Shown piece by piece: positions 1,650 to 57,067 of a stretch of 61,683 nucleotides of DNA (within the stretch, counting starts at the first letter, position 1; every line of letters starts with the position of its first letter). Source of the stretch: Psammoneis japonica (Eukaryota); assembly GCA_008632985.1 (NCBI GenBank), contig QPGO01000208.1:62001-123683 (forward strand). Direction: 5' to 3'. The translations under genes were made by a program, and so were the position numbers. Under the pieces are notes generated by a model. It did not search any database and had not been told where the DNA came from. It saw nothing but the letters and a program-made list of their open reading frames with translations.

Positions 1650-4600
1650 TACACGACGAGCATTTGAAGCTTTTGGGGAAAAGTCGATGAAGAGACGTTT
1701 CGAAAATTGAGAGTGCACAGCGCCACAACATCATTTTCAGTTTGCCTGCAATGATGGATGATGGCGTTGCTGAGTCGAAATGACTTTTTTGAATCCGTTG
1801 CAGCTGACAAAAGGCCAGCCAATTCCTGATGTTTTGGTTTCGTCAGCGCAAGAATGTCCCCCAACCTTGTTGTGCATTTTAGCACAACCAGCCAAGGCAT
1901 TGAAAGGGAGCGGGCATGCCCCGCTGCTCTTGTGGACACATTTGCATCCACGCATGCTGGTCTCCAAGCATTGGAGAGCCAGCCCAAATGCCTCATGTGC
2001 TGTGTGTGGTGCACACATCTCTGACTTTTCATCGTTGTCGAGTGCTTCGCAGCACAGCTCCGGTTTTCAGCTCAGAGAGCAGGGGCACTGGCCAAGTCAG
2101 CAAGGGACACAAGAGCCCTCCACAAGCTGTTGACAGTGGACAACATGTGTGCCAGTGAGAAAGAGTGTGAGAGGCAGATCTCAGAGAGATCTGCTCATCC
2201 ATGACCCTGGGTCTGACCACTGTCCACATGACCTGGGTCTGAATTTCATTTGCGCAGCTGGCGCGCTGGTGCAGACACACACTCCCCATGTCTGTGATGC
2301 CTTGTGAGATGATGGCATGGGTCCTCACAAAGGGAAAGAGGAAGTGCAGCAGCACAAACAAAAGAACAACCCAGCCAATGGAAAGGCAGCAAACTGGATG
2401 ATGCAACAGACAGCCAGGCTCAACATGTGCAAAAAAACCACACAGGGCAAGAGTGTCCCCAAAAAGCCTCCAACAGCAGAGCAGGGTGTGCATGCTGACC
2501 CACCTGAGTCTTCAACAAAATGATCAGTGGCAGGTTTCAACAAAGCTTGCAGATCAACTGAGTCATGAGCCAAGAACAACTCTGTCACTCGACAAATGAT
2601 CAAAGTTGAAGAGGTGCACTCTGGCAAGCCACAATGCCACACTGAATCTTGTCCAGCAAGTTGAGGCTGGGAGGTGCAGGCTTGCCATGGGAGATGCTGC
2701 AGTGAAAATTAAGAATTGCAGCAGTGCACCAGACAACACAATGCCTCCACCACATTTGCTTTGCCCCTGAAAAATGTCTCACTGATGTCAACATCATGTT
2801 GGAGAAGAACATGAGAGAGCAAGTTGGCCAGGCATTGAAAAATGTTCTAATCTTGGCCACCACAAATGACAAAGCACCTTGGTCAAACCTTGAATGCCCT
2901 TCTGCTTTGCGTGCCTCCTCTTTGGTGCATTGTTGACCCGGCCTCCCCTGACCAGGAGGTGACAATTGTCAGGAGAAAGGATGGCTGGGGGGTTGGGAGC
3001 ACCATGAAAAGCAAAACACACAACATGTGCCAACAGTCAGGACAGCTGAGGAATGAGACTGTGTGGTGGAAGGCAACAATGCTTGGTGACCCTCTTTCTC
3101 AGTTGCCACACTTTTGCTGACCTTGTTTGGACATTGTCTGGATGAGAGGAGCTGCGACATTGTGCGCCCAAAGTTGACAATGATTGAGCCAAAACTCTGA
3201 GTGCAAAGTGACTCCACAGTTGACATGGCAGTGGCTGCATCCACATGAATTGTGCAATGGCATTGCCAAGGCAGCAAGCAAAATGTGATCCAGACTTGTT
3301 CCAGACTTAGGTGGCGCGCACATGCCCCTTTTCGCAGAAAAAATAATTTTTTAATGCTTTATCGAACACCGTACATATTTAATAAAATTGATCATATAAA
3401 TGGCTTCTAAGTAAAATAAACAGAATAAACTCGAACAAACAAACAGCCAAACCGGCCATGGCTTTCAGTGACCATGACGGCCCACTTTTTTCAGCCTTAT
3501 GGAAAATTGAATGTCATGACCAGGATCTCCGTATTTGATATAGTCTGTGTCATCAACAACAATAGTGAAAATGCTTGTTGAAGGCTGCAGCGCGGCACAA
3601 TAATGCTAAATCTGTCAGCAACAACAATTGAGCCTCTATTCACTCACAATTTGCCTCTAAGGACCATTTCTTTTCTATTACCATGTATATTTCCTCAATA
3701 TATTCGACTGATTCAAGTGTATCAATCGTTTATGCCTTTTAAACCGTGAAAAATGGTCCGAAGTCGACGCCATTGCGTGGGCTGAGCTACACTTCTTCTC
3801 ACGTCGTCCTAAACTTATTAATCAACGTATGCTTTATTCGATCCGTTGAGTGTAACTCGTATTTGCGTATACAAACAAAATATTAATTATGCTATGTTAA
3901 AGACTTAATTTATATATTTTAATAATATTTTATATGTTTCCTGTTACATTAAGGCATATATAAATAGCTCATCGGAAAATTCGAGCTCTCAACTTACGGT
4001 ACAATTTAGCGACTAACAACTGAGTCCATCAACAGTTTCGAATACATGGGTACACGCACAAGACAATTCTGTATGTACCCATAACAACACATTTGTAAAT
4101 TGTTATGTTTTTACTATCGAAAATGGTACCGCAAGTGTGGACCGCGCGTTTCATGCAAAAAGGGTCTTTTTTCGCGCGTGAGTGCACCTAAGTCTGGAAC
4201 AAGTCTCCATCCAATTGGCGAACACAGCCATCTTTGCATGGAACAACAGAACCACCAGAAACAAAACATTGGGAACTGGAGCAAGCTGGCATGTGGGCAT
4301 CAGCAGGAAGTGCCGCCAAATCTGGTGGACAACACCAGGAAGCAACCACCAATCTCTGCAGATGGCTCACCTTGCAGGTGCCACACCAGACACATCAGAC
4401 TCAAAATCCAGTGAATTGGCGCTTGCAAGATCCATCTGAACACCCACTTGAAGAAGACACCACAGGTGAGAGATGAGACAGAAAGCAAAGAAGCCAGTGC
4501 TCATCAATCACAGTTGCCAGACAGAAGGTGAAGTGCACTGACTGCATCAGCCCTTCTCATGAGGAAGGTTGTCCATGCCCTTGTCAAAGCACATGTGTGC

Positions 4601-5450
4601 TCAGCAAGCTCAACCTGAAAAGTTTCACAGTTGTGCTGTGGGGCACTCTTGGTGGCACAACCTGGATGTGCTGGTGGCCACAGCAGGCAATGCAAGCCCC
4701 GACAAGGCACCATGTGACGCCATGACAAGATCATCAACATGGGTCAATGTGGGCACAAGTGCTTGGTTGGGCACATGCAGCATGTCCTTTGATGTGCAAG
4801 ATTTCTTGGGGACACCTCCAAAACACCTGCCAGGCACCACACATGGCAATGCAGGGCTTGGTGCATCCTCACATGAGCTTGTGACAAGATTGGATGTTGT
4901 GGGTTGATGGAGGACTGTCACCCAATGATGACAGAAATGTGTTTGGGTGCATGTGGCTCAAGGGCAAACTTGCTCCAGCCCACGCAGCTCCACTGCACAT
5001 CAGGCAGAGTTGAAGTGTGTGTGCTTCATGCCAATTGCAGTGGCTCCTGTCACCTCATGAGCCTTGAGAGCAACTTCGATCTTCGGCTCTAGCATCTGCT
5101 GGCTTGGGAGGTGAGACAACATGGAGTCACCACCCACTGGAGACCTCACTTTGAGAGCAGCTTGTGCCTGAAGATTGACACAATGGCTGTTGCATCCTTG
5201 GGGTTCCTTGTTTGAGACAGGAAATGCTCATGAAGGATGTGGCCCCTGTCCTTGGCTTGGGCGTGTTTCTCGTCTTCAGAAAACTGATCCAGGTCAAGAA
5301 TTGTTTCACCATGAGTGTGGCTCAGGAACCCCGTGGATTCAGAGAGATGAGGGCATTCCTGATCTGCAACCTTGATGAAATCACGTCCGAATGATTGTCA
5401 AAGGACATGACAACTTCGAGCGCACTGCAGCTGACATTTAACAGGCGATT
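1650..5450. mobile_element. Decayed TE-like block depleted of CpG and TpA, interrupted by a younger TIR element
   Basis: Hundreds of bases without any TA (e.g. 2161-2400), TG/CA-rich, and only Cys/His/Gln-rich shadow ORFs. Family not identifiable and boundaries approximate. Confidence 0.55.
3293..4205. mobile_element. Non-autonomous TIR element (MITE-like), 913 bp, 21-bp perfect TIRs, 4-bp TSD TCCA
   Basis: GACTTGTTCCAGACTTAGGTG at 3293-3313 and its reverse complement at 4185-4205. TCCA at 3289-3292 and 4206-4209. AT-rich non-coding interior with TA and CG retained. Confidence 0.85.
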
Positions 5451-9562: not shown

Positions 9563-9989
9563 CCTTATCTTCCAACCTGACTTGCGGCAACCGGCATCAC
9601 CTCACAATCGTGTTGTCGGGATGCTGCGGGTGGATAATCTTTTTTGGCGGGGGATTCCGAGCGTTATCTTGGCGACATTAAAAACCTATGAGCTTGAATA
9701 ATATATACTTTATCCTCGTATTCAAACTTAAAGCATGTTTAATTCAAATCCTCAACGTCCAACCTCAATTGCGCTCACATTTTCGACGAGTGAATCGAAA
9801 TTCGCAAATCAACGTGTCTGCCGGAAATGCGTTTTGGTGCGGACTTCCCAATGACGGGAAGCCAAGAAATGGCGTTTTGAGGAAAGCCAGCTGCATTCTT
9901 TTAGATCGATGGCTCTCTCTCTCGGAAGCCCCCAATCCCAAACGCAACAAGCACAAGAGCCAGATCACCCCAGTCTAAAAAAATTCGTC

Positions 9990-11330
9990 AACGATCCCAT
10001 GGCAATTGGCGCATCACACCTTCATGCCACTAGAGAGACCACAGTGCATCAACGGGTTTGGAGGATGATGTTGCCGAGTGTGCCAGTCACTGCAAATGCA
10101 CAAGTGTTTGACATGCCCCCCCTCTGTCATTCGACGACACTTGCCCCAGTCTCTGTGACTTTCCATTTGGGGTGCTTTGTTCAAATCAGCGGCAACTTTC
10201 CGTCCATCAAATGCTGTCATCTGCTTCTCTTCAAGACTCACAAAATGGGAATGCTGTGACGAGTGTGTTCCTCCATGGAGCGAGTTGCTGTTGCCGCTCA
10301 GATGTTCTGAAGCAAAGTGGCAGGCAGTCGAGTTGCTGTGGTTGAGGATTGACAGATTTCGAAAGGACAAGAAACCAAAGCTGAGGCACATTCATTTCTG
10401 TTTTGTGACAGAGTTGTCATTGTGAAAAAAAGTGATTCCAGCTGTTGCTTGTGTTTGACAATGGAGAAGCAAATTTTTAATCATCTGAGGAGGCGCTCTT
10501 CAGAGAGCAACATTTTTGACAGGGCACGGTGTGACAGGAGGCACCAGAAGAACCATGGCAAAATTGTTGCAAGCATTTGAGAACTTTCAATGATGTCACC
10601 CATTGATTGATGGCTGGGGCGTTCTTTGGGAAAGAAATGTCATCGAGGTCGCGTTGGTCCCCCCCTTCTTGGCACAAGGGGGGACATTGCCCAGCTGGGA
10701 AAGAGCTGGCTTTGGATGCACTCCACATCCTGACCAGATGAGCACACTCTGCTTCCCTTGCAACACTTGCAATTTCTGGTCCTGACATTGCAGCCACATG
10801 AGAAAGGACCCACCAAAGCAGCCTCAAAGCACTTCGAGGGGCCCACATTGAGAGAGTGCAAGCGGGCCTCAAAAAACTCGCAAGTCGGCACCACACCATC
10901 AAAAGCTGATTCAAGCACAAGCAATTTTGCCCCTGGATTCATCATGGGTTCTCCAACACACAACTGGTGTGCAACATCTTGCATTGGGCAGCCACAGATG
11001 CCACCAATTGACTGCACCTCATTGCACTCTGTCGTGCTGCTTTCTGGGGAGCTCGCACGGGCATCCAGCAAGGAACAGTTCAACACAGAAACTGGCCAGT
11101 TGATCTGAACAACCTTCTCCTTCCATGACATCTCCCCCCATTCAAACAAAGCATGCACAATGATGAACCATCGGCACCTTGACCGGACACAACCTCTGCG
11201 ATGGAAAAACTGGGAGATTGAGGTGGCGCAGTGCATCATGACAGCCCACCAAAAGGTTCGAAAACAACATCGAACATGGTTTCTTCTGTAAACAGAACAA
11301 GAGCAAAGAGCAAGTGGCCCTCGCAGTCGC
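9990..11330 (-). pseudogene. CpG/TpA-depleted block containing a relic of a diatom-type Cys-rich repeat secreted protein
   Basis: Minus frame 'CNEVQSIGGICGCP..LCVGEPMMNPG...PTCEFFEARL...CFEAALVGPFSCGC' (~10780-11090) resembles the TC..EA...C...CGC repeat of diatom surface proteins. No Tyr in this stretch. Confidence 0.5.
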
Positions 11331-11623
11331 TTGAAGTGGAACAGTGCAGACAGCAGACAGCAGCGGCGGATCGGACTCATCAATCAGATCATCAGATCAG
11401 AACGTGGAACTTGAAGTAGCACGATCGGCTAAGCTCGATACACACATCAACGGTGTGTCGTGTGTGTGACAAACTTTCGTTGAACTTCACTGCAATGGAG
11501 AAACGGCCCACGCCACGTAGATTTCTACGTGTCTTGTACCACGGCGCCTCCATTGCAGACAGCATCTCTTCTCGTTCGAGTGCTCTCACAATTTCTGAAT
11601 TGCTTGTCAGTTCACAGTCCATC

Positions 11624-22392: not shown

Positions 22393-22668
22393 GGTGATTG
22401 TGTTTGTGTGACAACAGAACAACAAGCCAATGAGAAGAAGTTTTTGATCACGACGTCAGAAAAGTTCTGCCAGGGCAGATGGTTGGAGGGAACTTTGGTG
22501 TTGGGAATTCTGATGCAAAAAATGAGTTGACGTGTCTGCCTGTCTGCATGACGTCATTGTTAGTCTGTTCTTCGTACGTCAGATACGAAGCACGCGCAAC
22601 CACACAAAATAGACGCTTAGCTTACTTTTCGGCATCTCACTTTTTTCATCACAGCATGTTTTGAGACC

Positions 22669-26509: not shown

Positions 26510-29500
26510 AACATGCCTGCCTGCAAAGCATCACTGCTTCTAGCTAGAACAATTTTGACATGTGACGCAAAGACAGCTGCTGCTGCTGTCATGCCATGGT
26601 GTCATGGAACTCAGTCTGTGACTCTCCATCCTCTTTTGTGGTGGCCACATCGAACAGAGTTAGGCGCGCCCTGGCCAGCACAAGCTGAGGACACCAGAGA
26701 GCACCCCCCCCACACACACACACAGTGCAGGAATCAAGTTTGTGCATCCCACGGAGCCCAATTTTCCCCACACCCTTGCTTGATTTTTACAATCCACAAT
26801 TTGCACAGAAGTTCTCTGAGTGTCTTTCTCCTGTGCAGAGATTGTGCCAGTTGCCTCAAGGTGCCTCACGTGGTGTGTGTGTGTGTGCTGTGGTGTTCTT
26901 CTTTTGTTTGATGGCCCCTGTGCAACACAGAGAGCCAGTTCTCAGACACAAAACAACCTTCATGACTTTCCTGACAAACTCTTTCTTGGACCCAAAACAT
27001 TTTTCATAATTGCCAGTTCAGCAGACAAAATTCTTCAAAGTTTTGTGGGGGTGCAAAATGTGCACCCCACAGATTTGTGTGCTGGGCGCATGGGAAGAAA
27101 ATGCACAGCAAAGTTGTCTCCCCTGCCCCTGCAATGTGCAAGCACTAGAGCTCTGCATGCAAAATGTCTTTGGTGAGCAAAGTGTGCACACACAGCTTTC
27201 TCATGGGGTGCACAGACCCTGCACACAGCAGGCCTGTGCAAGTTGGGATGCACGTGCCCACAACACTCAACATCACAGGTTTGTGCACAGGCAAGCAGAG
27301 GCATGGGGACAATCTGTTTGCTGATGGAGCCAGTGCGCCACAGCAGCACAGCAGCTCTGCATGCACCCATGAAAATTTTGGCACCTTGTTGTGGCTTTGT
27401 CAGCACCCCAGCAGTGTTCCAAGCACATTTGTGAACAGAAAGAATCTGGAAGAACAAACTCTTTTGTCCACTTCCACACAAGCCACTGGGTTGAAGGAGA
27501 GTGCGCTTTGCACTCCCGCTGCTCTGTGCTTGCTGGACCCTTTTGACCCCATCATTTTAGATTGCCCTCAACTCCAAGCCATGTTTGTCCAGCAGCCGCT
27601 TTGCCAGCCACCCCGTTTCATGCTGAATGTGACCAATGACTGCACCATTTGCTTGAACAGCATGGTGCAAAGTGCCATTTTTTTGTGCTGCACGAGTGAT
27701 GAGCCTGAGCCAATTTCTTCTGTTGTTGACAAAAACAGACATGAGTCATCTTGTGTTTGCCCATTGAGGCCACCAGCAGAGACAAACACATTCCAAAAAG
27801 TGAAAAAATTGATTGCTCAATTTCCTTGACAATCAAGGATTGACGCATCTTGGCAATTGAGCAACGAATGAGACATTTGTGATGCTGCATCATTGAACTT
27901 CCCTGCACGCGATTTTGAAGCTGGAATTTTGAGAATTGACAAATTCTTGCAAAGTTCATCCCTGTCACAAAACCAAGAGCTTTGAGTTTGAAAGCACAGT
28001 TCAAAGAATCAGTTTGGGTTTCTGGAAACAAGCCAAGGAGGGAATGATGATCTCATTGCTTGCTTCAAAGAGCACTCTTGTGACTGGTGGAGCTGAATTC
28101 ATTGGACTGTGCAGCCACAATTTCAGAGTTTGAGAAAATTGTCAGCAAACATTCATGCCTCAGAGTTGGTTGCCATTTTGACCATGTTGAGATTGGAGGT
28201 TGCAATGGAGCAGAAATTCCAACACATCCCACTGACTGTGCTCTTTAAAATTTGGGAGCTGACACATCATGGACCAAAGATTTTGATGACATGACAGCGG
28301 CTGGCCATGAGCTGCTCTGCCACTTGACACATCATTGCTCTAACCTTCCTGAGCATGTTCTTCATTGTTTGGCTGCTCATGCTGCTCCACATGAGCACAT
28401 TGACCCTTCAACCACCACAGAGCAAATCTCCACAGGTGGAGATTTGCTTGACTTCATGAGCTGTGATGTGTCACATGCCGCCACTTGTCATGAGCTGTGA
28501 TGTGTCACATGCACTCGTGTGACAATGTGATGAACACAGCACAAAAATGTCACATCATGTGCAATCTGCATAAAATGTGCCACACTCATTTCCTTGTTGC
28601 AAGCAAATCTCTGCCGGCAGAGACATGCTCCAAGGGTGCAGTGTTCACAACTCATCAAAAATTTTGCTGTTGTGGGTTGAGATTTCAATGTGCACTCCAA
28701 AACAAGTCATCCACATCTGAGAACATTTCATTTGACAAATTGGTCTGGTGGTCAAAGGGTCAACCATGACTTCATCATGGAAGAACAAACATTTCCTCAA
28801 GGCAATGCATTTTTCACTCCTTGTGCAGAATCAAAACATTGTGCCAAAAGATTGGTTGAGTCCAACTGGGACAAGACAAAGGTTTGCCATTGTGCGGCTG
28901 AGTGCAACAGTGCAGGAGCTGACTTGGGAAATTGTCTTCAAGTTCCACTTGAGTTTGCAACTGACATGAAGTCAATCAATGGACTGCATTGCATGACACA
29001 CCCACTGTCTCCATTTTCTGTCATCAAAGACAAGTCACTGGTGGCCTCTGTTTGCAACACAGTCCTCAATTGCCTCAACAAGATCAGATTTCTCACCACT
29101 TCCATCGCCATCCAGTGTCTTGGCCATGCACAGATTGATTGTTTGAGCATTGTCGTGGCACATCACTCTGGCCACACCCAAAATCAACAAAGAAACTGTC
29201 AGCATCAAGCAAATTTCCTTCCACAGATGATGCTGGTCACAACTTGCAACTTGCTCATGTTGTTGTTGCCGATGGCCCTGAGATCACTCCAGCGGTGTGG
29301 GCTCTGTGGCCGCAACCATCAAAATCCCAGTTTCCAGTGATGGTGCTGCAACCTGCAATGTTGTTGCTTCTTTTTGGCAAGTCCAGGTGACCAAGTCCAC
29401 AGCCGCTGTCAATTGCCCAAACCATCATCTTTGCTTTTGGCTCCTCTTCCAAGAACCAGAACTCATTTGCCTGTGTCACATTCACACCATGACCGATTGA

Positions 29501-30000
29501 CTCTTGTTCAAGACATCTGTCACCTCTGGTTCCCTCCAAATGCAGGTCATTGTCAACCTTCATGGGTGGGGCTTTGATCTTGTGCACCAGCTCCACAAAT
29601 GTCCAATGCTTCTGCTTTTTGATAGAACATTCAGCGTGGTTGCATTGATCACCTGAACAGAGACTGTTTTCAACTTTGGTGCACAACTCTCAAATCTGCC
29701 ATTCTTTGCCCACTTCTTTGCCAGCCTGATGATGCCCTTCTTGTTCTTGCATCTCACAAACAGCTGAAGGTCTTTGTCAGTCTTTGCTGACTTTGTGTTG
29801 CTGTCCATCAATGGTGCAATTGTGTCCATGCCTGCTTGATCCATCTTGCTTGGAAATCCTGCAGAGACCAATGTTGTGCACCAAGAATTAGATGCTGCAT
29901 TACTAAAAAGAGTGAGAAAAGAACTAGTCTCATGGTGAGGACGACTTTCGGGGCAACTGTACAGCCAAAGTGTTTTGCGGACAGACAGCAGACCACAGAT
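26510..30000. mobile_element. Decayed repeat element, copy A (CpG/TpA-depleted)
   Basis: Colinear similarity with 33.7-34.75 kb, e.g. TTTGAAAGCACAGTTCAAAG..CAGTTTGGGTTTCTGGAAACAAGCCAAGGAGGGAATGATGATCTCATTGCTTGCTTCAAAGAGCACTCTTGTGACTGGTGG at ~27990-28090 and ~34035-34140. Confidence 0.7.
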
Positions 30001-32689: not shown

Positions 32690-35600
32690 TTGCATGATCT
32701 TCACCTCTGTCATCACTGGTAGAGCCACATCAGATGCCTCAGGGTTCCACAACGCATGGAGCCTGAAGCTTCTTGCTTCGCGCGGGGGGTTGACGTTTGC
32801 CCCAGTTCAGCCAGGGGGAGGTGCTGCATGTGTTGGACAATTGCAGGACCAACAAGAAACCTGATGGCACAAGTTTTCTACAGAGTGAGAAGAAGAAGAT
32901 CAGATGCTGGAAATGCAATGAGGTTGGGCATGTCAGAAAAAGGGCGGTCCTGACACAGCAGTCATTCGTTGGCAGAGTCGAGCGGTGCAAACCACGGGAG
33001 TCAATGGAGTGGTTGATGTGGTGCTGGGTGGCATGGATTCCAAGTGTCATCCTCCTGTGCATGATGTGCACAAGGCCAGTCAATTGACAGCTTGTGCAAA
33101 GGAGTGTGTTGGAACATCAGGGTCAACGGGAGTCATTCGAAAATGTTGCAAGAGTCACAGCTGGCATTTCACTTGAGGAAAAATACAAAATGGTGTGGAA
33201 ATGCACACAAAGTCATGCAAGAGGGCGACCAGAGCCAGCAACTTTTTAAGAACTCAATTGAAATGTCATCTGACCGAAGGCATTTTGATTTGCATGGTGA
33301 GGAGCAACACCTCTTTGGTCAGATGACATTTCAAAATTGAGTTCCCGAGAAGTTGACATTTGAGTGCAGAAGGGTGGACAGACTGAAAACAATTGTTTCT
33401 GGTGCTCTTCTGCACAATTCCTGCGTGATGACTCTGAGAGCCATGATGATTCCCATTGTGGAGGCAGTTTTTGCAGAACAGGCAGACACAAAACTGCGGT
33501 GGAAAGATGACACACTCTGATGATTGTGGATGATGCTGAGTTCTCACGGGTCTTGTGCTCATGTTTCAGCTTCTGCAGCCAATTGACATGGCAACAAGAG
33601 CAGTCAGCAGCATTGACAACAGCGTTTGCAATCCATGTGGTGAGTCAGAAGCCAGTGAGACAAAACATGTGCCAGCCCACAAGCCGCAAAACTCCAACGG
33701 GGGTGCACAGACCCCACACACAGTGGGCCTGTGCAAGCCAGAATTCACAGGTCTGCTCTGCACCACAGGTTTGTGCAGTGTGCACAAGCAGGAGCAGAGG
33801 CACAGGGACAATCACTTTTTGCTGCTGCAGTCAGCGCCACACAGTGGCTCTGCACATGTGCACAAAAATTCTGGCAACACTTCTTGAGGCCTTGTTGCAG
33901 CTTTGTCAGCACCCAGTGTCCTCAAAACATTTATGTTGCAAGCTGCAATCCAAAAGAACAAACTCTTTGTCCCCACTTCCACAAGCCATTGTTGGGCTGC
34001 AGGAGAGTGTCCTTCACAAAAGCAAGAGCTCTGAGTTTGAAAGCACAGTTCAAAGCATCAGTTTGGGTTTCTGGAAACAAGCCAAGGAGGGAATGATGAT
34101 CTCATTGCTTGCTTCAAAGAGCACTCTTGTGACTGGTGGAACTGGACTCATTCTTGCACTGTGCAGCTGCAATTTCTGGGTTCAAGGAACTTGTCAGCAG
34201 CAAACATTGGTGCCTCAGAATTGGTCACCATTTTGACCATGTTGAGATCAGAGAATGCAGGGGAGTTGACATTCTGACAGATCCCACTGATGATGCTCTT
34301 TTGAATTTGGGAGCTGACACATCATGGACCAAAGATCTTGATGACATGATGGCAGCCAACCATTAGCTGCTCTGCCATTTGATGCATGTGGCTCCAACCT
34401 TCCTGAGCACGTTCTTCATTGTTCAACTGCTCACACCACTCCACTTGAGCATGCCAACAATGACTTCATTGCAGAAGAACAAACAATGTTTCCACCAGGA
34501 GACACATTCTCTTCATTCCTTGCACAGAATTGAAGCATTGCACTGAAAGACTGATTGAGTCCAACCGGAACAAGGCAAGGTTTGCCATTGTGTGGAGCCG
34601 ACTCAGGAAGTGATCTCCAAGCTCCACTTGGGTGGGCAACCGACATGAAGTCGTTCAATCAATGGATTGCACTGCATGACGCATCCGTTGTCTCCTTTTT
34701 CTGTCATCAAAGACAAGGAGTCACCAGTGGCCTCAATTTGCAACAGCAACGCCGCTCCAGTTGACCACGTGGTGAACATTGCTGTCACTTCACTCTGTCG
34801 TTCATTCACTGACATGAGCAAAGATGTCTTTTGTGTTCATGCAACTCCACACCACAAGGATGACATCATGTGGGGAGAACTCATCAGGACCCACAACTCC
34901 AACATTTTCCTTGAAGAAACAGGTCCGAAAGATTTTGATGACACCGACTCGAACAAGTGCTTGGCTGGCATGGAGCTGCTGCTCAAATGTGGTGGCAGGC
35001 CCTTTGCCTTCAAGCCAAAGAAGAAGCATGAAGTTCTGCAAAGTCACCTCACCAAACAAGAGTCACAAGACTTCCCCATGACCTGGACTTCGAGCGAAAA
35101 GAAAGCCGAGGCCAAAATGTGCGTGAAGAAATGCTGCGCCATCATCGGCAGCGTGCTTGAAAAGAAACTCCTTCAGCAAAACAGCAAAGCGACAAAGCAG
35201 AGCATTGCTTCCACATTGGTTGCTGAGGGCGCAAAAGCTGCTGAGCAACAATTTTGGGAAATCCCCCATGAAGCGGACATCTGATGACAAGTGTTTCATG
35301 TGGGGGTGTCTTGTTGTGCAGCACGCGCATTGTTGAATTCTTTTTGTGTGCAAAACACAAAATGAGACTCTGTCTTCTGTTTCACATTCGGTTCATTGCA
35401 CTCAACTCCACAACCATGACCAAAGTCTTGAATGTGCAAGGCCATTTTCTGATGACTGGTGGATTGCAGACTGAGCTGGCCACATGAGCAGCATGCAAGA
35501 GTCTTGCGGTGCCGAGGTTTTGTTCATGGGGGAGACAGCAGCGCTTTTGCAGTGCGCAACATCAGATGTCACAACCTGAAATGCATTGCATGAACAACGT

Positions 35601-36100
35601 GAATCATGTGGCTGTGCTCAATGAAAACAGATCCCATGGTGGAGCCTCTGGGATTTTGATGCATGCTTCTTTGTTCTCAACTCCGAAGGGAGAGCACGTT
35701 TGCCTGATTGTGAAGTCAGCAGAGCTGCTCTCTCACCTTGGCGAAAGGGTCTGCAATGTGGCTTGGTTGGAGACAGATCATCCAGTGGGACCATCAGTTC
35801 AAGCACCACTCCTGCCGAGGCCTCTCATTCCTTTTCTTCCACTGCCGAGCACAAGCAATCCCCAGCCATCATCTCGAAGCTTTGGTGCATTGCACAACCC
35901 CATGGTGTGACACGTGACGCGCACAGCCAACTGCAAAACCACATTTTCAACAAAATGCACACAACATCAACCAACTTGTTACAGGCCCTGCAAATGCCAA
36001 GTGCCATGCAGCAGGGATAAGTTTTGGGGTCGCAAGCAGAGGGGTCGCGCATCGCACACTCACAGCATGGTGATGCCATCCACCACGTTTGCTTCTGCCT
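32690..36100. mobile_element. Decayed repeat block: probable Ty1/copia gag fragment followed by repeat element copy B
   Basis: 'DGTSFLQ...IRCWKCNEVGH' (truncated zinc knuckle, ~32865-32935), then sequence homologous to 27.2-29.05 kb. CpG/TpA-depleted. Confidence 0.65.
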
Positions 36101-36432
36101 GGCCTGTTCTGCCGATCTTCGCGAACGCGCATCCGCTTGCGCAACGCAAAAAGCGCGCAAAGACGCAGGCGAGCTTTTTCGTCGAGCGTTGAGCGTGATC
36201 TCCTCGAGATCGCCGACAGAGCGAGACGAGACGCGGGTTGCGGTGTTACCTTTTATGCTATAGTCATTCTTGTTGCTTTCGATTCATTCTTATAATACCA
36301 CTCATTGATTCGTTCACCCTTCAAGGCCATCCTACTCACCTACGACAATTGATTTGTAGATCGCTGCTGCTGGTAGTGAAAAATCTGTAGGAAAGGCTAG
36401 AGAGAAAACGGTATTCGAAAGAAAAAAAAATA

Positions 36433-40559: not shown

Positions 40560-41600
40560 CATACACTTCTTCAGATTCGAATAAACTATTTTGAAACAGT
40601 CGTGCATCATCAGCGCAAAAACCACATAACTGCAGATGCACACATGCCAGCCCATGCATGTTTTCTCCCACAGGAACCTCAGCATCTTTTGTGGTCTCTT
40701 TTGTTGTCTGTTGGATGATTGAGAAAGACAATTGGAGGAAAACAAAAGAAGTTTGTTGTGAAAAATTGGAGCAGCTTGAGCACAGTGGATTTGTCACAAC
40801 ACACAAAATGGAGAGAGAATGACCATGGTGCAAGAACACCAGTGCTGCAGGCACCCCTTGGTGTTGAATTGCCATGACAACTGTGCAAAAAAATGTTTTT
40901 TTGTGCACACTCACCTTTCAATTTTTGAAAAGATCAAATTTGAAGGAGTTGTTCAGTGTGCCAAACTGCACAGAAAATCTCGGCCTCTCGCTGATGGATT
41001 TCTCATCACCCGGGGATGGAACAGGCCATGTGGTGTGACAAGCATCTCAAACATCAGCAAAAAAGAAAAAGAAGCACAGCAATGCAAGTGAGCAGCTCTT
41101 TCTCTGGATTGCAAAGAAATCTTCCAAAACAGCCATCTGCCACAGTGTTTGCAGCAGGCAAGTGCCCCCCTTGCAGCAGCGGCTGGCATCAGCACAATGC
41201 AAGGCAGTTTTTTTGTGAAGAGAGAGGTTTCTGTTCAAGAATGTGGCACCTGAAGATCCCTGAATGGGGCTGGATCAGTGCTGTGCATGTTTTCCATGCA
41301 CAAGGTGACAGCCCAGGTGTGCTCATTTTTAAAAAGCAATGCCGCCAGAGGTGCCAGCAGGGGGAAGCAGGAGATGGTCGTGATCATTTTGCACGCGGGG
41401 GTGAGTTTTTGCATGGTGTGCACAACAAAACGGAAAGCACACCACAGTGCCTCAAGGGAACTCCAGAGAGCAGCATGGAAACAGGTTGGTTCCATTGTGA
41501 TGTGCTGTCATCTCTCATGGGCTTCTTTTTGGCCGAGCAGGTGGTGGAGCAGGCCCCAGCGAGCCAGCTGATGGGGTGGTGGTGCCATCTTGTCCACGAC
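40560..41600. mobile_element. Decayed CpG/TpA-depleted block of unknown origin
   Basis: Same dinucleotide signature as the other blocks; no family recognised. Confidence 0.45.
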
Positions 41601-41699
41601 TCGTGAATGAAACTCGCAGTCCCGAACTGCTGTCATCGATGAGAAGCACGAAGCACGTGCTACATGCTGCATATTTTTTTTTCTGATGCGAATCCAACC

Positions 41700-47385: not shown

Positions 47386-47541
47386 ATCCCCTCGTCACAA
47401 ACCAGCGCTAGGCGCCCTCTCTGAGAGGAGGACAATGCTGCCCTGTGCAGGCACTAGACTACGTCATACAGTTGTCATCATTGCATTGAGGCTCAGCATT
47501 AATACCCAAGATCAAGGACGCACCCGATCCACCAAGACCCC

Positions 47542-47804
47542 CAACACCACAGTCTAAATGGTTGGCGGTGCCAGTGATCATTCAAAAATTCGTGCGCAGC
47601 ACTTGAAAAATCATGCGCGCGAAACCCAATTTCTATTCGAACGATTGCATTAACAATGTAAATCCCCTTTTTCAACACCACAGTCTAAATGGTTGGCGGT
47701 GCCAGTGATCATTCAAAAATTCGTGCGCAGCACTTGAAAAATCATGCGCGCGAAACCCAATTTCTATTCGAACGATATTGCATTAACAATGTAAATCCCC
47801 TTTT
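47542..47804. repeat. Tandem duplication of a 131-bp unit (47542-47672, 47673-47804), with a decayed third copy within ~47885-48080
   Basis: CAACACCACAGTCTAAATGG...GTAAATCCCCTTTT repeated; copy 2 carries a 2-nt insertion. Confidence 0.92.
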
Positions 47805-50800
47805 CTCCTGGAATTCAAGACGACCCTACCATTCTTCATACCTGGGTTCGTCACGAAGAAGGAGCGATCTTTCGAAAAAATGAAAGACTGCATCATGCAC
47901 TTGACATCACGGCATTGGGGCTCAGCATCAACACTGAAGAATGCCAAGGACACACCCTGACATCATCCCCCCAAGACCCCCAACACCACATTCTAAAGGG
48001 TTGGTGGTGGTGCCAGCTGATCATTCAAAAATTCACAAGCAGCACTTGAAAAATCATGCACACAACACCCAATTCTGCTCTTCCTGAGCTGCACTGTTGT
48101 GGACTCCTGTCCTCCTTTTCTCCAGTTCCTCATTTCTGGGAGGATCGTTTCTGGCCATCTCATGGTGGATGCCGCTTCCTGCATGGTCAGCACAACTCTC
48201 CAAACAATGTGGTGGTTTACGCTTGGACCTTGCACCCGACAACGTCACCATGGCTGTTGGCCTCTCAACTGCTGCCAAAGGTCTGGCCATTGCTGCCTTG
48301 GAGCTCCCCATGCAGGCTGTTGTTGTGGACAACAGCACTCAACTTTGCGATCCTTCAGAGTGCTGCTGCTCCGTTCAGGCCCACCATGGTCTCGGGCAGT
48401 GCCTTGGTCCTTGCCCGGGTGTGTGTTGTGCCAGCTTTGACTGCAGCAACAGCTGCATGGTCAGACCTGGTGATCACAGTGGCTGCCAGTCTGAGTGTCA
48501 CTGCCGCCAGCAATGCCGTGCCCACACAGAAATCTTCTTGGGATGTGGTGCCCACCTTGGCTCCAAGACACGTTTCTCATCCCTCCTTGGCTCTTTTTGC
48601 CCAGTTTCCATGTCATTCATGCGTGGCTCTCATGATCTGTTGGGTGCTCTCAAGCCCTCTGACCACTTTGCCAACACGGCACTTGCCCGGTCCTTTGATG
48701 GCCCCAGGGCCCCATCCTGGCTTGTGGTCCCTTGCAGAAGGCCCGCACCAGCAGCAATTTTTTCTTGCCGGCGGGTGCATCACCAGGCAGCCCTGCATTC
48801 CTTGTGCAGCACTGCACCAGGGATCTGCCAGTTCTGTCAAATTTGGCTGATGCCCAGGCAAGTGCTCTAATCTGGTGTTCTCTCCCAGGCATTTTTCTGT
48901 TGCCTCCATGCTTTGACCTCCCGGTTGGGCAGATCTGGTCCTCCTTGATTTCCTTCACAAGTCTCAAGGGGCCAGTCTCACTGCTGTGAGTCAAAACACA
49001 AGTGCTTTGCATTCCACCTGGGCAGAGGACCACCCCCTTCTCACCAAATGGTTCACAGCTGTGTTGGCCTTTCCTGATGAGTTTTGTGTTGAGCTCATGT
49101 TCCTTGCGCCCAGCCTGCTGCTTCTTTGTCCTGCCCGCCCTCACCGCGGGATCTGTCTGTCACAATCCCCACGTCCTCTGACTTGGCTGTGGTTGACCAA
49201 GACATGGCCTTCCAGCCACATGGGGATTGCATCCTCAACAAAGTGGACTCAGACAAACCACCATCCCAGCACCTGGACTGTGAAAGCAAGGCCTGGGATG
49301 GTGTTCACCCCAGCCAACAGCTGCCTCAGTGCATGACCAGAAGAGTGGTTGCTTTGGCCTGTGGCATCATCAATCCCTGGCAGCAAAAAAGCTTTGCACT
49401 TTGAAATGCTTTGCCCTGGGTCACTTCACTGTGTGCTCTCCGTTGACCCTTTCCTGCAGAAGCACTCACCAAAAGTCATCAGTTTGGAGTGTCCAGAGCC
49501 TCCCACCCCTCTCATGACCAACAAAGTGATGCAGCAGCAGATGGCCAGTGGCTTCTCCAGCAGCACTGGCTGCATCACTGTTGCAAGCAAAAGGGAGGAC
49601 AGTGGTGGTGATGGCCTTGCAAGTCAGTTTGCCACATGTCGTACAGCCCATTCTCACCAAGCATCATTTGCCACAGGTGCAGCCCAGCCCAATCCTGCAG
49701 CCTTCACATCAGTGGTGGCACTGGCATCAGAGTGCCCATTTCAGCTGCCCCCCCCCNCCCCCAACTGTTTGCCTCCACCCGGAGTCCTCAAGCCCCCGGC
49801 ATTTGATCTCATGGTGGAGTCTCTGCCACAGTGTCAGGCAGCTGCACCTGGCCAATGGCAATTGCCATGCCAGTTAACCTCGTGTGCACAACGAGGATCC
49901 TGGGTGTGGCTTCCAGGGACACCTCACCCAGGAGACTGGTGTCCCAGCCCATCATCATTGGTCAGCAGGGTGCCACCCACCAATGCTCACACACCCATTG
50001 CTCTGCTGCAGTTGGGTGCTGCCCCCATGTCCCCTTGGTCACCAGCACCACCAGCGCCACTCCAGCAGCCTCCTTCGAGGTGACACCTGCTGTGGTGGCA
50101 GCAACTGCATCAAAGGATTGGCCCTTCTCACTGCTGGCCAGCAACCAGTGAATCCAGGGACCAAAGGCCACAGTGCTGTTTTGTGCCTTCTTGCCTTTTC
50201 TGGAGTCCCACTTTCAAGGTTGCTTTGCAAGTTTGACAGCACAGATTCTTCCAGACAAGTGCAACTGTTTCCTGCTGCATCCATCCCACATTTTGAGATG
50301 CTGTTTTAGGGCAAACACCAGAGAAATTGCAACCACCCACCTGTCCCTGCATCTTGTCACAGGAGCACCTTGTGCAGTCAGGCTCTTTTGGTGCCCCACT
50401 TAACTTTGCCTTCTTTCATGCTGATGCCTTCCAAGCCTGGCGGCAGGCCACTGGACCTTTGATGCTGAACAGTCTTCCACAGCCCTTGGCATGACATTCA
50501 CAGTGTTTGCCCTTGTCCCAACCCTCCCGGATGGCTCTGGGCCGGCATGCCTTCCCAGGGCAGGTGTTGCTGTTACATCCATGGAACTGCTCATGTTGCA
50601 CTTCCAGTGGCTTCTTCAGCTCTCTGTCACAGGGGAGGATGGCTTGACACAATTCAATCAGAGCTGTCTCCAGTTTGACCCCTTCCAACAGCTGTTCTTC
50701 CTGCTTTGCTTGCACGCAGTTCAGCTCCAATGGGAGTCCAGTAACTTCTCTTGCTCCACACACTCACATCAGTTTCTCTGTTGTTTGGCAGAGCTGCTCA

Positions 50801-52724
50801 GCCTTTCATTTGCCTGGAGCATGCAAGACAGCCTTGTGCATCTTGCATCAGAAGCTTCTGGGCAATGCTCAGCCCTTCCTGCATTGAAGCCCACCATCTC
50901 TCACATGCTGGGGCATTGGACTCAGTGCACTGTGGTGCTGTTCAACATGAATCTGCATTTGGACACACACGGCTTCAAGCTGCACCATCAGAGGCTCTGC
51001 TGGTGGCAGCAGGAGTGGCCACAAAAGCCACCAACTGCTGTCTTCTCAGGCCACCCCCATGGACTCCACTGCCAGCAAGTGTCTCAAGTCAGCTGAGGAC
51101 CCTCTGCCAACATGACAGAGTTCACTTGCCGGCAAGTGCCTTTTCAACTGGAAATCTGATGCAAACACCTGCCATTTTTGCAATCTTTTTGCTCTCTTGA
51201 AGTGCAAACCACCCACTGTCTTGACCGCAGGCACCAACAAGCCGGCAAACGTCTGCCTCTGGGTGCTTTGCATCCATTGAAGTGGTGCAAGAACTCAGAA
51301 TTTCTCTGCAAATGACAAAGAGGTGTGTCTGTTTGGAAACTCGGACTTTGAGCCAAGACCATCCCTCCTGAAGGTTGTTGTGGAAAGCTTTGAAGTCAAA
51401 TCACTCTGGTCTTTTCAGCTTGCCAAAGAGGCTCTCTCACACATTCTAGTGCCATCTGTCAAGATGTTTTTGTCTCATCAACATCTTGAGCAGGTTGGCA
51501 ATGCTGTTTTGTGTTTGGTCATGCATGAGTGGGTGTGCTTTCAGCATCCTGAAAAGGAAGTGGGAGAGTTGGTCAGCCTTGAACCAGCCTTGGTGCCAAA
51601 CAAGAAGACTCTTGCGCATTTGTCATTCCAGATCAGTTTGCACACATTTGCCAACCATTGTGGTCGAGGATTGCCCTCATGCCTTGAACACTCAGTGAGT
51701 GGTGTGTCAGGGAACAAGGACAAGGGCTGTAGAGTGCTGGCAAGTGAAGTGGACACTTGCCTCATGACTTGGCTGCTGCACAACATCATCTGGCACCAAT
51801 CTCTCATGAACTGGAAACACTCTTGTGTCTGCACTGCACATTGCCAGATCCACCAAAGGTGATTTCTGATGTTGTCGAAGCCTTGTTTGGGCACTGCTCA
51901 TGTCAACACCAGAGGCTTGGCAAGATGGTCAAAAAGCAGTGTTGAATGTTTTGAAGTCAGCTGCACATTTGTTGCAAATGTTGGACTGCTCCAATTGCAC
52001 TGAGTGCACAAGCAATCCAAAAAATGGTCATGCATGCCTTGGTGGGCAAATTTCTTTGCACTTCCATTGCAAAAGAAGAAGACTTTGCACAATCCAATCT
52101 AACAACACTTGTGTGGCAGGGTGATTGGTGGCACAATGCCAATGAGAAAGCCATTGACTGTGTTGCCACCATTGGTTGTCTTGGCAAAGATGTGCTTTCC
52201 ATTGTCAAAATGACAAGGAAGAGTGCGTGCAATTGCACCTGTGCCATGGTGGTTGCCTTGATGGAGGATGATCCCAAGCTGTTGCAAGAGTCAACAAGAA
52301 CAAAATGATGAACAAAGAGGACAGCAATGATTGGCAAATTTTGCAGCTTTTGCCATCCAGACCTGTTGCTTTCTAGCAAACTCTCTGCATTGCTCTTGAC
52401 TCCACAACAAAGTTGGCCCTGTTCTTGGAGTGCATGAGACTGTTGTGGCATTGACTCAATCAATGTTCTCACATCAGGCTTCAATCTCCTGTGCCACGTG
52501 GCCAGGTGCCCCCCCCCCCCCCTTGTTGCAAACCTTGGGATGGTCTGCACACTCACTCACATTGGTGCCAACAAAATGGAGCAGCCAAAGGCAGCAGCCT
52601 TTGCTTCTTCCCACTCCTGTTGATTGCACAACAAAGCAAGTGCAGCCCCCTTTGCAAATCACTGCGCAATGAACTGAGCAATCAAAAATGTGCTTGCTGG
52701 GTTCTGGGCTGTCTTTGGAATGTT

Positions 52725-52935
52725 CAAAGCCTGGTGCATCAAAGGTGTCTGGTGCACCTCTTCTGCAAATTGCATCTTTGGGATCAGGAAACTGCTTGAG
52801 CCAGGCAATGGAACAGCAACATCCATCAAAGGGCATTGCAGAGGCAGAAGTGTTGTGACACTGCTGCAATGAATCTTTCAGTGTCAAAGCCAATGTGCAC
52901 TTTCCACCACTGGGGGCGCCAATGAGGGCCACCAT
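52725..52935 (-). pseudogene. Relic of a YggC/Yfh7-like P-loop (pantothenate/uridine kinase-like) gene
   Basis: 'MVALIGAPSGGKCTLA...MPFDGCCCS...FPDPKDAICRRGAPDTFDA': P-loop and RRGAP.TFD signature, with Cys at positions that are usually Tyr/His. Confidence 0.75.
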
Positions 52936-53541
52936 TTGGGGACACCAGATGATGTTGTTGCCATTGTTGTTGTTGTTGGCTGTTGCTTTTCCCGGGCTGA
53001 CAGCACTTGTTGAACATCATGAGTGACTGGTTTTCCCATGTGAGTTTCGTGAGCCATTTTTCAGTCACCCTTCTCTTCTTTTTTTTTAGTGGAGTGGCTG
53101 AAATGATTGCGCAGTGACGATGGAAATGCAAAGGAAGGAGAGAAAAGGGAGATGGAGTGTCATGGTGGTTTTTGTTTGTTGGCGGCAGGTTCCTCGTTTT
53201 CGGTGCACGAACATCACTCGAACAGAAATGTTCTTCGGAAGCCATCCACGACTCGGGGCGACGGCGTCGAAACCACAGCAGTTCGCATTTTGCATGTGTT
53301 TTGCTCCCATTCAATGCATGTTGTGTGGGCAGGGCACCACAGAAACGGAAGGAGCGATGATGCGAAGGCTTCGAATTGTTCAGACGTGAACATGAGCACG
53401 CTTGATGGAAACATGTGGTTCGCATCATGGCCATGGCCTTTGCTCTTTGTGCTCACACCCTTCCTTTCATAAAATCAACTTTCAACCAACAACACCTTCC
53501 GTCATCCAGGTCTAAAAAAAAATCAACGAATCATCTCAACG

Positions 53542-54883: not shown

Positions 54884-55319
54884 GGACTGAGCGCCTGTTC
54901 TTTCAGCGTGAATCGAATCTCAGCATTTTGTTAGAAGGACCTGCATGTGAACCATGATTAGCCCTGCTGCAGGTAGAATGCAAGAATTTAGGTGCAGACA
55001 ATGCGTGGAAAATTCTTCGCATCAAACAATGCAAGACTCCTTGAGACTGCCCCCAACAGGCCCAATGCAGAGCGAAGGTGGGCCGCTGCACCCTGCCTCC
55101 CCAAAGTGGTTCAGTTCGCATGTTGCAATGGCAGCATGCTTCCAGGCTACAACTCGTTTGTCAAAGCAGAGGCTCTGCCCTGCCAAGGCTGTGATGCGAA
55201 ATGTGGCTATGACAGCAAGGATCATTGTGCACCATTGCTGCATGAAATGGGTGGACAAGGTTGACACCAGTTGACATGTCGTGCCAATCATTCTGTGTTT
55301 TTCGTGTCTGCGCACAGAC

Positions 55320-56430: not shown

Positions 56431-57067
56431 GGGTCCTTGCTTGCAGGGGCTCCAAGGTGCCTTTCTCACAGCCTGCTCTCATGCCAACTCCAACGTGCAA
56501 CAACGAACAATTGGCTGCGAACCGGAAGCACCAGGAGATGGGCGCCTCAGCACTTGCTCAAAACAGATTGTCACTGCTTGATTTGATTGTCTTCGTGTGT
56601 TGCTGGAAAATGCCACTCAAAGACTGTCCATCCACCACTCATGAAACAATGCAGTTCTTGGTGTCGCGACGGAAAAGCAGGAGGCAAGAAAGAAGAGTGG
56701 TGCATGCCTGCTCTCCCTCCCTGGGTCCGTCGTGGCGATTCCCGCGATGACGATGTGTTGACTTTTCGTCACGCATTTTGACAGCGCAGGATCTTTCGAA
56801 AAAATGAAAGATCGCGTTTTGGAGTCTATCGTTCCCGCCGCGCCGCTCGTCAACACTGCTAATTTTCTTTTTTCTGTGAAAGGTTACGGATTGATTAGAT
56901 TGCCCACCCTCCCCATACTGTAGATGCACACCCTCCACAGTTGTTGGGCACAGCAAATACCGAGATTGATTCGTAAAATCCATTTGCCGATAAAGGAATC
57001 GAAATCCATCACAAGAACGGTTTCCTCATTAGCAACTGCTTTTCGACTAACTACCGACACGCGGAAA

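Follow-up and report, generated by a model that had tools for sequence, protein, structure and literature searches.

The DNA analysed here, called the window below, is a stretch of 61,683 bases from Psammoneis japonica, and all counts refer to it. A two-state HMM on TA density, applied to the whole window, called eight TA-erased blocks (1651..3307, 4190..5438, 9741..11416, 26546..29888, 32721..36246, 40628..41660, 47840..54055 and 54990..56826) with a total of 20,537 of the 61,683 bases. The TA O/E is 0.04 inside the blocks, where 49 TAs remain, and 0.57 outside, where 1666 TAs formed the comparison set for the flank counts. The CA/TG O/E inside the blocks is 1.76-1.77, and the CG O/E is 0.30 against 0.98 outside. 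The erasure is confined to regions that sit between intact genes of normal dinucleotide composition, and its edges are sharp, the TA O/E going from 0.79 to 0.00 across a block edge. The protein encoded at 56924-58939 appeared in a protein atlas as a 2-hydroxyacyl-CoA lyase 2-like TPP enzyme. Both strands of the blocks are affected (TG 2200, CA 2334), and in 400-base bins the skew between strands stays within chance, while runs of one strand are no more frequent than expected.

No recognisable living gene was found in the blocks, since none of their 91 ORFs of at least 90 aa was above the Pfam cut-off; no viral hallmark was seen in them, and tblastn of 160 outside ORFs against them returned no gene copies except a repeat at 47.4 kb. 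The largest block, 47840..54055, contains on the plus strand, at 51281..51859, a dead copy of a Dicer-like RNase III domain, for which a word-free search found 70 relatives (an earlier homologue search at longer lengths found 0); PDB sequence searches with three other ORFs of this block gave no match. In the RNase III copy, residues conserved in the family are replaced: three Tyr sites now read His and a fourth Cys (Tyr being found there in 8, 4, 3 and 6 of 8 relatives), two Arg have changed to His and two to Cys, and Asn stands where all 8 of 8 relatives have Asp. Each of these residue changes corresponds to one transition at TA or CG (TA>CA/TG, CG>CA/TG). The original prediction had explained the dense Cys/His/Gln-rich shadow ORFs of such DNA by the loss of Tyr codons and of TAA and TAG stops, and the counts bear this out: when the blocks are translated in six frames, Cys, His and Gln stand at 1.65, 1.55 and 1.48 times the outside values and Tyr at 0.03 times, TAA and TAG are about 10-fold rarer than outside, and stop-to-stop frames of at least 90 aa number 4.43 per kb in the blocks vs 2.77 outside.

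Two unmutated elements interrupt the erased DNA. By reading, a TA-rich element with terminal inverted repeats of the GACTTGTTCCAGACTTAGGTG type lies at 3285..4215 and cuts one erased block in two (1651-3307 and 4190-5438), and a 394-base, MITE-like inverted-repeat element at 54165..54560, with TTTA on either side, cuts the erased region 47840-56826. Their end motifs are related, with 3 mismatches. A search for the end motif in metagenomes gave 26 loci, whose similarity stops at the pattern's own 20-28 bases and which were set aside as chance. At 54563..54989, a further erased stretch that the HMM left uncalled was recognised by eye; it retains five TAs, four YTAR and one GTAG. In the contigs of the one public run, the unmutated repeat-like element within a block reached a summed depth, which is not a copy number, of 135,163, against about 35-190 in other bins; since this element stays unmutated, being repeated does not seem enough to set off the process. 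Block 40628..41660 also drew a pile-up of many contigs from that run and is thus repeat-like.

The block 32721..36246 is an old duplicate of part of 26546..29888, with about 1.08 kb shared according to blastn, and it retains CG at its right-hand end. We compared the two by blastn and in ungapped segments of 574 bases in all; a transition-tolerant local alignment broke into 167 gapped pieces at about 0.8 R/Y identity and was judged unreliable. At 16 sites the copies differ as TG against CA, with independent outcomes. Transitions were also found at 26 of 290 non-YR sites, and among 19 isolated ones the 5' base is a pyrimidine in 7. At this divergence the 4534 CA/TG steps of the blocks should have given rise to many new TAs, yet only 49 TAs are present.

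We sorted the surviving TAs by their flanks into YTAR, which has TAY on neither strand, one-TAY, with TAY on one strand, and RTAY, with TAY on both. In the interval 1650..5450 the residual TAs had been noted as mostly YTAR, and all four are: block 1651..3307 retains three (1880 TTAG, 2710 TTAA, 2848 CTAA) and block 4190..5438 a single one (5090 CTAG). The other named sites are likewise YTAR (10031 CTAG, 10478 TTAA, 26661 TTAG, 27558 TTAG, 48868 CTAA, 49875 TTAA and 51447 CTAG), which makes 11 of 11. Five TAs remain in 9741..11416 (four YTAR, one one-TAY) and a single one in 40628..41660 (41330 TTAA); in the order YTAR/one-TAY/RTAY, the numbers are nine in 26546..29888 (5/4/0), seven in 32721..36246 (2/4/1), 18 in 47840..54055 (10/7/1) and five in 54990..56826 (2/2/1). 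Over all blocks, the 49 survivors comprise 28 YTAR, 18 one-TAY and 3 RTAY, and the YTAR share is far above that outside (277 of 1666, 16.6%; Fisher p 3.6e-10). Trimming 150 bases off each block edge barely shifted the class counts (27/17/3).

Normalised to the outside sequence, which is mostly coding and whose composition the blocks are assumed once to have shared, the expected numbers are 138, 446 and 247, so that 0.20 of the TAY-free sites survive; a single TAY lowers this to 0.040 and a second to 0.012, a near multiplicative series. By tetramer, density relative to outside is 0.27 for TTAA, 0.20 for CTAA/TTAG, 0.15 for CTAG, 0.008 for ATAC/GTAT and 0 for ATAT. Equal depletion of all NTAN contexts was rejected in the inside-versus-outside count (LRT chi2 50.2, 3 df, p 7e-11), and an additive half-site model fits the data (deviance 6.2). 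The half-site doses, classed by the base 3' of A, are 0.63 (0.36-0.92) for A, 1.02 (0.74-1.40) for G, 2.09 (1.72-2.67) for C and 2.71 (2.15-3.66) for T, and grading by flank is present in 7 of the 8 blocks individually, although the sample of survivors is only 49 sites. The flank effect reaches past the tetramer: A stands at +2 in about 52 of 98 half-sites (p 1.6e-7) and is raised at +3 too, and 20 of the 24 surviving TAY are TAYR. The original prediction of a TAY to TGY process agrees with this grading, which is what a per-strand TAY rule predicts, but it does not hold as a strict target, because YTAR itself is about 80% lost (28 found, about 138 expected), so that TAR must also be attacked. 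TAY is a preference, 3-fold under a survival model and 7-fold under a steady-state model, rather than the target.

The orientation of the products provides data independent of the surviving TAs. The ratio of YTGY/RCAR to YCAY/RTGR is 1367:1016 inside the blocks and 1761:1498 outside (chi2 6.0, p 0.014; z 2.36), where the baseline is the mostly coding outside sequence taken as ancestral and products derived from CG dilute the signal. The excess is present in 7 of the 8 blocks (Mann-Whitney p 0.0035), and its size is that predicted by a 3-fold preference. The product orientation thus modestly favours erasure with a preference. Strand fractions by single context are noisy, and T..T, at 0.40, runs contrary to the model. 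We used this orientation difference rather than the TGY fraction (p 3.6e-6), which was set aside because TGY increases without any preference too; a bookkeeping of tetramer gains and losses was also set aside as too noisy.

The direction of change can be read directly at a few sites. An unmutated copy with a 131-base tandem duplication (100% identical) lies on the plus strand at 47395..47800, and a mutated form adjoins it at 47850-48100, across the block edge. Four of the five ancestral TAs became TG or CA (CTAC>CTGC, ATAC>ATGC, TTAA>TCAA and ATAC>ACAC), and one CTAA was kept. Only two directly polarised sites are informative, that is Y-TA-Y, and they split 1:1: CTAC>CTGC in this pair gives the predicted TG, whereas the sole informative Tyr-codon site, Tyr66 to His (TCT-TAT>TCT-CAT), goes against the prediction. 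A search of the whole window with purines and pyrimidines collapsed detected, besides the 26546/32721 pair, no more than two small duplications, and with so few repeats there are few before-and-after pairs in the window. A TAY>TGY change reads as RTA>RCA on the opposite strand, so the attacked base, A or T, is not evident from the sequence.

The loss of CG follows other rules. Its edge is softer, the O/E going from 0.78 to 0.23 over 600 bases inward from the TA edge, and its survival depends on flanks in another way, with 0.57 for SCGS, 0.28 for WCGW and no R/Y effect. A 5' T rule is also absent (TCGN 0.25-0.43, ACGN 0.23-0.36), and TpC shows no visible depletion beyond the by-products of CG loss. 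Because of its different flank rule and softer edge, CG loss is probably a process separate from TA erasure, and most likely it is the deamination of methylated CpG. Diatom transposons are reported to be methylated by DNMT5a (PMC9998398, as far as its relevant part describes). Such deamination explains CG>TG/CA in silent DNA and leaves TpA untouched.

We consider it probable, at roughly 0.6, that the blocks record a DNA-level, flank-preferring conversion of TpA to TpG/CpA in silent, gene-free stretches. The process would act on either strand and would run near saturation, keeping down even TAs that are re-created. Expressed as A>G, it would be fastest with a pyrimidine 3' of A, T ahead of C, and 3 to 7 times slower with a purine there (G, then A). 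Purines at +2 and +3, above all A, would slow it more, so that YTAR, typically TYTARA with purines downstream on both strands, would persist longest. The flank grading would then be a property of the eraser itself, which may be an enzyme aimed at silent chromatin.

A different origin of the YTAR excess is that all TpA are erased alike and that TAs are re-created at CA/TG by context-biased C>T changes, such as the UV-type YCA>YTA. The survivors alone do not separate slower erasure from biased re-creation, as the log-likelihoods of three models for their origin are -6.6, -6.8 and -8.2, a spread of at most 1.6 units, and the regeneration-only model, at -8.2, fits 28/18/3 nearly as well as the best. 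Background transitions, as seen between the duplicates, are frequent enough to re-create many TAs; survivors tend to follow pyrimidine runs (TTTA, TCTA) in a UV-like manner, with T at -2 in 20 of 28 YTAR, and all 12 surviving top-strand TAY precede CA, TG or CG, possibly as remnants of CACA/TGCA precursors. Re-creation would, however, need a bias of about 10-fold for YC over RC, and the 5' pyrimidine in 7 of 19 isolated transitions differs from 10:1 with p 8e-9. It also predicts 24.5 one-TAY survivors where 18 were observed, it does not predict the excess in product orientation, and at least one YTAR survivor, CTAA at 47994, is ancestral, being present in both unmutated copies. On balance we regard re-creation as an unlikely source of the pattern.

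Far less probable is an effect of composition, in which the DNA had much YTAR and little RTAY even before the blocks formed and the survivors mirror that ancestry. The normaliser is indeed mostly coding, and YTAR is under-represented there, yet the excess persists when survivors are compared with all YR steps within the blocks, of which 23.5% have Y..R flanks (binomial p 4.3e-7). Moreover, the unmutated elements that interrupt the erased DNA showed, by reading, no abundance of YTAR, and the grading recurs in single blocks. That selection or protection kept the YTAR sites, as binding sites or as TTAA/TWA-type transposon targets renewed by insertion and excision, is suggested by the TTTA on both sides of the element at 54165-54560, but this is very improbable, as the survivors are single and scattered over 20 kb, share no longer motif than Y-run/TA/R-run, and lie in DNA that yielded no recognisable gene in the Pfam search. 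Base modifications cause systematic errors on some sequencing platforms, but base-calling artefacts at modified bases in heterochromatin are scarcely credible, as public-run contigs, built from exact 31-letter words, match 47747-49302, 49748-52522 and 52509-54114 with 0 differences (the run may be the window's own assembly sample), insertions within the blocks are unmutated, and TG/CA outcomes are independent at the 16 duplicate sites. In addition, a preprint reports this signature among de novo mutations of another alga (Mettrop et al. 2026).

That alga is Bigelowiella natans, whose integrated giant viruses and virophages undergo a TpA-restricted hypermutation described in the main text of the preprint (Mettrop et al. 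2026, bioRxiv 10.64898/2026.01.13.699255), with an elevated de novo rate in mutation-accumulation lines (231 de novo mutations, Table S2) and with transposon-type Pfam domains enriched in TpA-poor genes. As far as we found, TpA-specific hypermutation is in print solely in this 2026 preprint, and literature searches returned no description from diatoms. The erasure in the window resembles the one reported there in being A:T>G:C at TpA, giving TpG or CpA by strand, in being region-confined, and in its long-term outcome of low TpA with high CpA and TpG. The lineage is different, however, and the window is near saturation, with an O/E of 0.04 against the Rho of 0.45 given for the NCLDV region of Bigelowiella. 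CpG loss accompanies the erasure here, and a dead Dicer-like gene copy is covered by it. TA loss agrees with the almost exclusive A:T>G:C changes of Bigelowiella in the account given there; the blocks also show massive G:C>A:T change at CG (CG O/E 0.30), which looks like a separate process, and other transitions (26 of 290 non-YR sites between the old duplicates). The flanking context of the TpA mutations was not found in the main text of the preprint.

Other known systems match in part. As in RIP of Neurospora and other ascomycetes, local dense transitions ruin repeated or non-genic DNA and spare adjoining genes, in the manner of a defence. RIP is a C>T change, mainly at CpA, that creates TpA, whereas here TpA is destroyed (0.04) and CpA/TpG is made (1.76). 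ADAR prefers G 3' of the edited A, and here G and A 3' of A protect instead (doses 1.02 and 0.63 vs 2.09 and 2.71 for C and T). ADAR hyper-editing of dsRNA is otherwise similar as A>G with a preferred 5' U (Discussion of Mettrop et al. 2026). Both strands are finely interleaved without strand runs, and thus the editing of a one-strand RNA followed by reverse transcription does not account for the blocks. The fold of ADAT2/ADAT3 and of TadA-derived deaminases, in the accounts available from the sources cited below, is able to turn A to I and C to U in DNA. For BjADAT2, a DNA-editing ADAT2 of amphioxus, the contexts reported are GAA for adenine and TCG for cytosine (PMC10354150, in the part that treats them), unlike the T-A-Y adenine context and the CG survival independent of 5' T found here. 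The TadA-8e variant A48E is said in a review to edit A preferentially in YAC (PMC13109818, the passage on this variant), which resembles T-A-C here. On the thymine side, TET/JBP of dinoflagellates make 5-hydroxymethyluracil, preferentially at TA and TC, and transposable elements, where this mark is concentrated, are silenced with its help (PMC11572971, in the sections concerned). It is a possible route to T>C at TpA; those sections report no mutational consequence, and, unlike the TA and TC preference described there, TpC is not visibly depleted here beyond the CG by-products.

Two chemistries would fit the erasure equally well, an adenine deaminase of TadA/ADAT fold that attacks T-A-Y, or an enzyme that modifies thymine in R-T-A. 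The flank rule turns the search for the enzyme into a testable question. It can be checked against the 231 Bigelowiella mutations, it argues against ADAR-like and BjADAT2-like preferences, and candidate enzymes of either kind, deaminating or thymine-modifying, can be assayed by it. The rule also explains the dense Cys/His/Gln-rich open frames that gene finders see in such DNA, and the erasure offers a means of dating and delimiting silent DNA in these genomes. More tentatively, the flank rule might reflect the substrate choice of a single enzyme dedicated to DNA editing, TadA-like with a YAC-type pocket or of the TET/JBP type at R-T-A, that is recruited by silent chromatin and belongs to a system common to diatom-like algae and the chlorarachniophyte Bigelowiella. 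If so, TpA erasure would be a genome defence of long standing, shared among SAR algae and opposite in direction to fungal RIP.

A two-state HMM on TA density called eight TA-erased blocks (1651-3307, 4190-5438, 9741-11416, 26546-29888, 32721-36246, 40628-41660, 47840-54055 and 54990-56826), summing to 20,537 bases. These TA-poor stretches lie between the genes of the window, which is eukaryotic as judged by its gene content: the long ORFs encode FG-GAP proteins, a dihydrouridine synthase, an S41 peptidase, a haem peroxidase, a NUDIX/CinA protein and a TPP enzyme (2-hydroxyacyl-CoA lyase 2-like). There were no tRNA or Rfam matches in the window, and the 91 ORFs of at least 90 amino acids in the blocks gave no hit above the Pfam cut-off. 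The S41 (C-terminal processing) peptidase also carries a PDZ domain; its coding sequence (20057-22425, minus strand) is divided between two ORFs that abut but lie in different frames, suggesting an intron or a frameshift. A 317-amino-acid ORF (6000-6953, minus strand) has a match to PF03496, the ADP-ribosyltransferase exoenzyme family (E 8e-12), an unusual find in an alga-like genome.

Inside the blocks, the ratio of observed to expected is 0.04 for TA (49 sites), 0.30 for CG and 1.76-1.77 for CA and TG; the outside values are 0.57 for TA and 0.98 for CG. The CA and TG gained match the TA and CG lost, and by-products of GTA>GCA and TAC>TGC could account for the smaller shifts of GC, GT and AC. 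Both strands were struck in fine interleaving, with neither skew nor runs at saturation. Homologous parts of blocks 26546-29888 and 32721-36246 (the old duplicates) share about 1.08 kb, and the 16 sites that are TG in one copy and CA in the other are separate events that struck opposite strands. Two paralogous FG-GAP repeat genes lie at 13056-16073 and 30479-32401 (both minus strand); since the latter sits between the two blocks, a segmental duplication may include it.

The original prediction was that surviving TAs are mostly YTAR, the context with TAY on neither strand, and that a mainly TAY>TGY process with an enzyme-like preference is at work. The observation was confirmed: YTAR accounted for all 11 of the surviving TAs named individually, for 4 of 4 in 1650-5450, and for 28 of the 49 in the eight blocks taken together; outside, the figure was 277 of 1666 (Fisher p 3.6e-10). 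The excess holds against all YR steps within the blocks (23.5% Y..R-flanked; p 4.3e-7) and when the outermost 150 bases at both ends of every block are dropped (27/17/3 survivors with 0/1/2 TAY), and erased stretches left out by the HMM, read by eye, hold 7 further TAs, namely 5 YTAR and 2 GTAG. Equal depletion of all NTAN contexts was rejected (chi2 50.2, 3 df), the TA density kept relative to outside being 0.27 for TTAA, 0.20 for CTAA/TTAG, 0.15 for CTAG, 0.07 for GTAA/TTAC, 0.04 for ATAA/TTAT, 0.03 for both CTAC/GTAG and GTAC, 0.02 for ATAG/CTAT, 0.008 for ATAC/GTAT and 0 for ATAT. The interpretation is partly supported: a graded preference for TAY is present, but about 80% of YTAR is also gone (28 versus about 138 expected), so TAY is a preference and not the definition of the target.

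A dose model, in which each strand contributes additively with a dose set only by the base 3' of its A, fits all 16 tetramers (deviance 6.2), with doses of 0.63 (0.36-0.92) for A, 1.02 (0.74-1.40) for G, 2.09 (1.72-2.67) for C and 2.71 (2.15-3.66) for T; a purine/pyrimidine-only version was not significantly worse (p 0.11). Among the 98 survivor half-sites, A stands at +2 in about 52 (0.28 outside; p 1.6e-7) and at +3 in about 43 (p 0.001), and a purine comes next after TAY in 20 of the 24 surviving TAY half-sites (p 3e-4). The typical survivor is thus a TA where a pyrimidine run meets a purine run, as in TTTAAA, TCTAGA or TTTAGA.

A surviving TA may be an old site that escaped erasure or a later one regenerated from one of the 4534 CA/TG steps. 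When models of their origin were fitted to the 28/18/3 counts, the log-likelihood was -29.5 with no flank effect, -6.6 with pure survival (rate ratio 2.9), -6.8 at a steady state with uniform re-creation (ratio 6.8) and -8.2 with re-creation only, taking C>T to be ten times as frequent 3' of a pyrimidine. These fits leave no doubt about a flank effect, but the survivors do not reveal its cause. Re-creation may yield the YTAR excess if C>T is biased to a 5' pyrimidine, but a strong bias is required, and only 7 of 19 isolated non-YR transitions between the old duplicates have a 5' pyrimidine. If the strand with Y after A is edited first, Y-TA-Y should yield YTGY over YCAY; YTGY/RCAR versus YCAY/RTGR was 1367:1016 inside and 1761:1498 outside (chi2 6.0, p 0.014; z 2.36), with the excess in 7 of 8 blocks (Mann-Whitney p 0.0035). 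Over about 1500 gained sites, the fraction with Y after TG is 0.64 when read as the edited strand and 0.49 in the alternative reading, about what a 3-fold preference would predict with nearly half of the gained sites CG-derived. A version using the TGY fraction (p 3.6e-6) exaggerated the effect, since TGY would increase with no preference at all. The graded flank preference probably belongs to the eraser, the process proposed to turn TpA into TpG/CpA. At 290 non-YR positions outside TA and CG sites, the old duplicates show 26 transitions (many at ATT/ACT and TTT/TCT) and only 2 transversions, a pattern that could come from the usual excess of transitions or from the eraser acting, more weakly, off target. 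With so many transitions, re-creation must be frequent and the eraser must have remained active to hold TA at 49; a steady state with a rate ratio nearer 7 is plausible.

Directly polarised evidence in the window is thin and neutral. Between unmutated 47395-47800 and mutated 47850-48100, CTAC>CTGC agrees with the orientation prediction, two ATAC sites, which went to TG and CA respectively, are uninformative on orientation, TTAA became TCAA, and CTAA was retained; context-by-context strand fractions were noisy. A tandem duplication of 131 bases (47529-47776; 100% identical, unmutated) stands directly before the block edge, and the block opens with a mutated copy (47968-48074), so that the edge parts two copies. 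In the largest block, an ORF (51281-51859, plus strand) holds a dead Dicer-like RNase III domain, matching Arabidopsis DCL1 in the PDB (E 6e-5) and, in a word-free search, 70 of 1.84 billion proteins, the best a 214-amino-acid metagenome protein (59% identity, E 3e-33); no further Dicer domains were recognisable in adjacent frames. Against eight relatives, three Tyr have changed to His and one to Cys, two Arg to His and two to Cys, and an Asp present in all eight to Asn; every one of these lies a single TA or CG transition away. The domain fixes the direction of change and shows that transposons are not the sole targets. The one informative Tyr (TCT-TAT>TCT-CAT) runs contrary to the orientation prediction, and the other three are uninformative.

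Edge shape and flank rule set CG loss apart from TA loss. Inside the TA edge, CG falls from 0.78 to 0.23 of expectation across 600 bases, and its survival is twice as high with G/C flanks as with A/T flanks (0.57 versus 0.28; p 1e-6), with no purine/pyrimidine effect (0.33, 0.32, 0.43; p 0.07). We therefore take CG loss to be a separate process, probably methyl-CpG deamination; transposons in diatoms carry methylation (PMC9998398).

The sequence fits either the A of T-A-Y or the T of R-T-A as the attacked base, since both describe the same event. ADAR favours G 3' of the edited A, the opposite of the pattern in the blocks. An adenine deaminase acting on T-A-Y would match the proposal for the closest known case, TpA-restricted hypermutation of integrated viral DNA in Bigelowiella natans, which shares dinucleotide, products, two-strandedness and regional restriction, and whose preprint gives no flank context in its main text (bioRxiv 10.64898/2026.01.13.699255). 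A TadA variant with YAC preference is on record (PMC13109818), whereas the sole DNA-editing ADAT2 with a measured context, as described in PMC10354150, prefers GAA and TCG. Alternatively, thymine might be modified in R-T-A; dinoflagellates convert T to 5-hydroxymethyluracil, preferentially in TA and TC, by TET/JBP enzymes and with transposon enrichment (PMC11572971). We infer that an A before a pyrimidine would stack more weakly and flip more easily. Our literature search found no description of TpA erasure in diatoms.

Two unmutated inverted-repeat elements split the erased regions (3285-4215, and 54165-54560 of 394 bases, with TTTA on both flanks); their terminal inverted repeats (GTTCCAG..CT.GGTG) are related. 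In one public run the summed contig depth at the 394-base element, which is not copy number, is 135,163, compared with about 35-190 for the remaining bins, and one contig links 54164 to 54559 across the element, possibly with other letters in between. Given this pile-up on an unmutated element, repetition alone does not seem to trigger erasure. What the analysis of the window newly provides is the dose model, the effect at +2 and +3, the distinction between TA and CpG loss, and a test of the rival in which TAs are regenerated.
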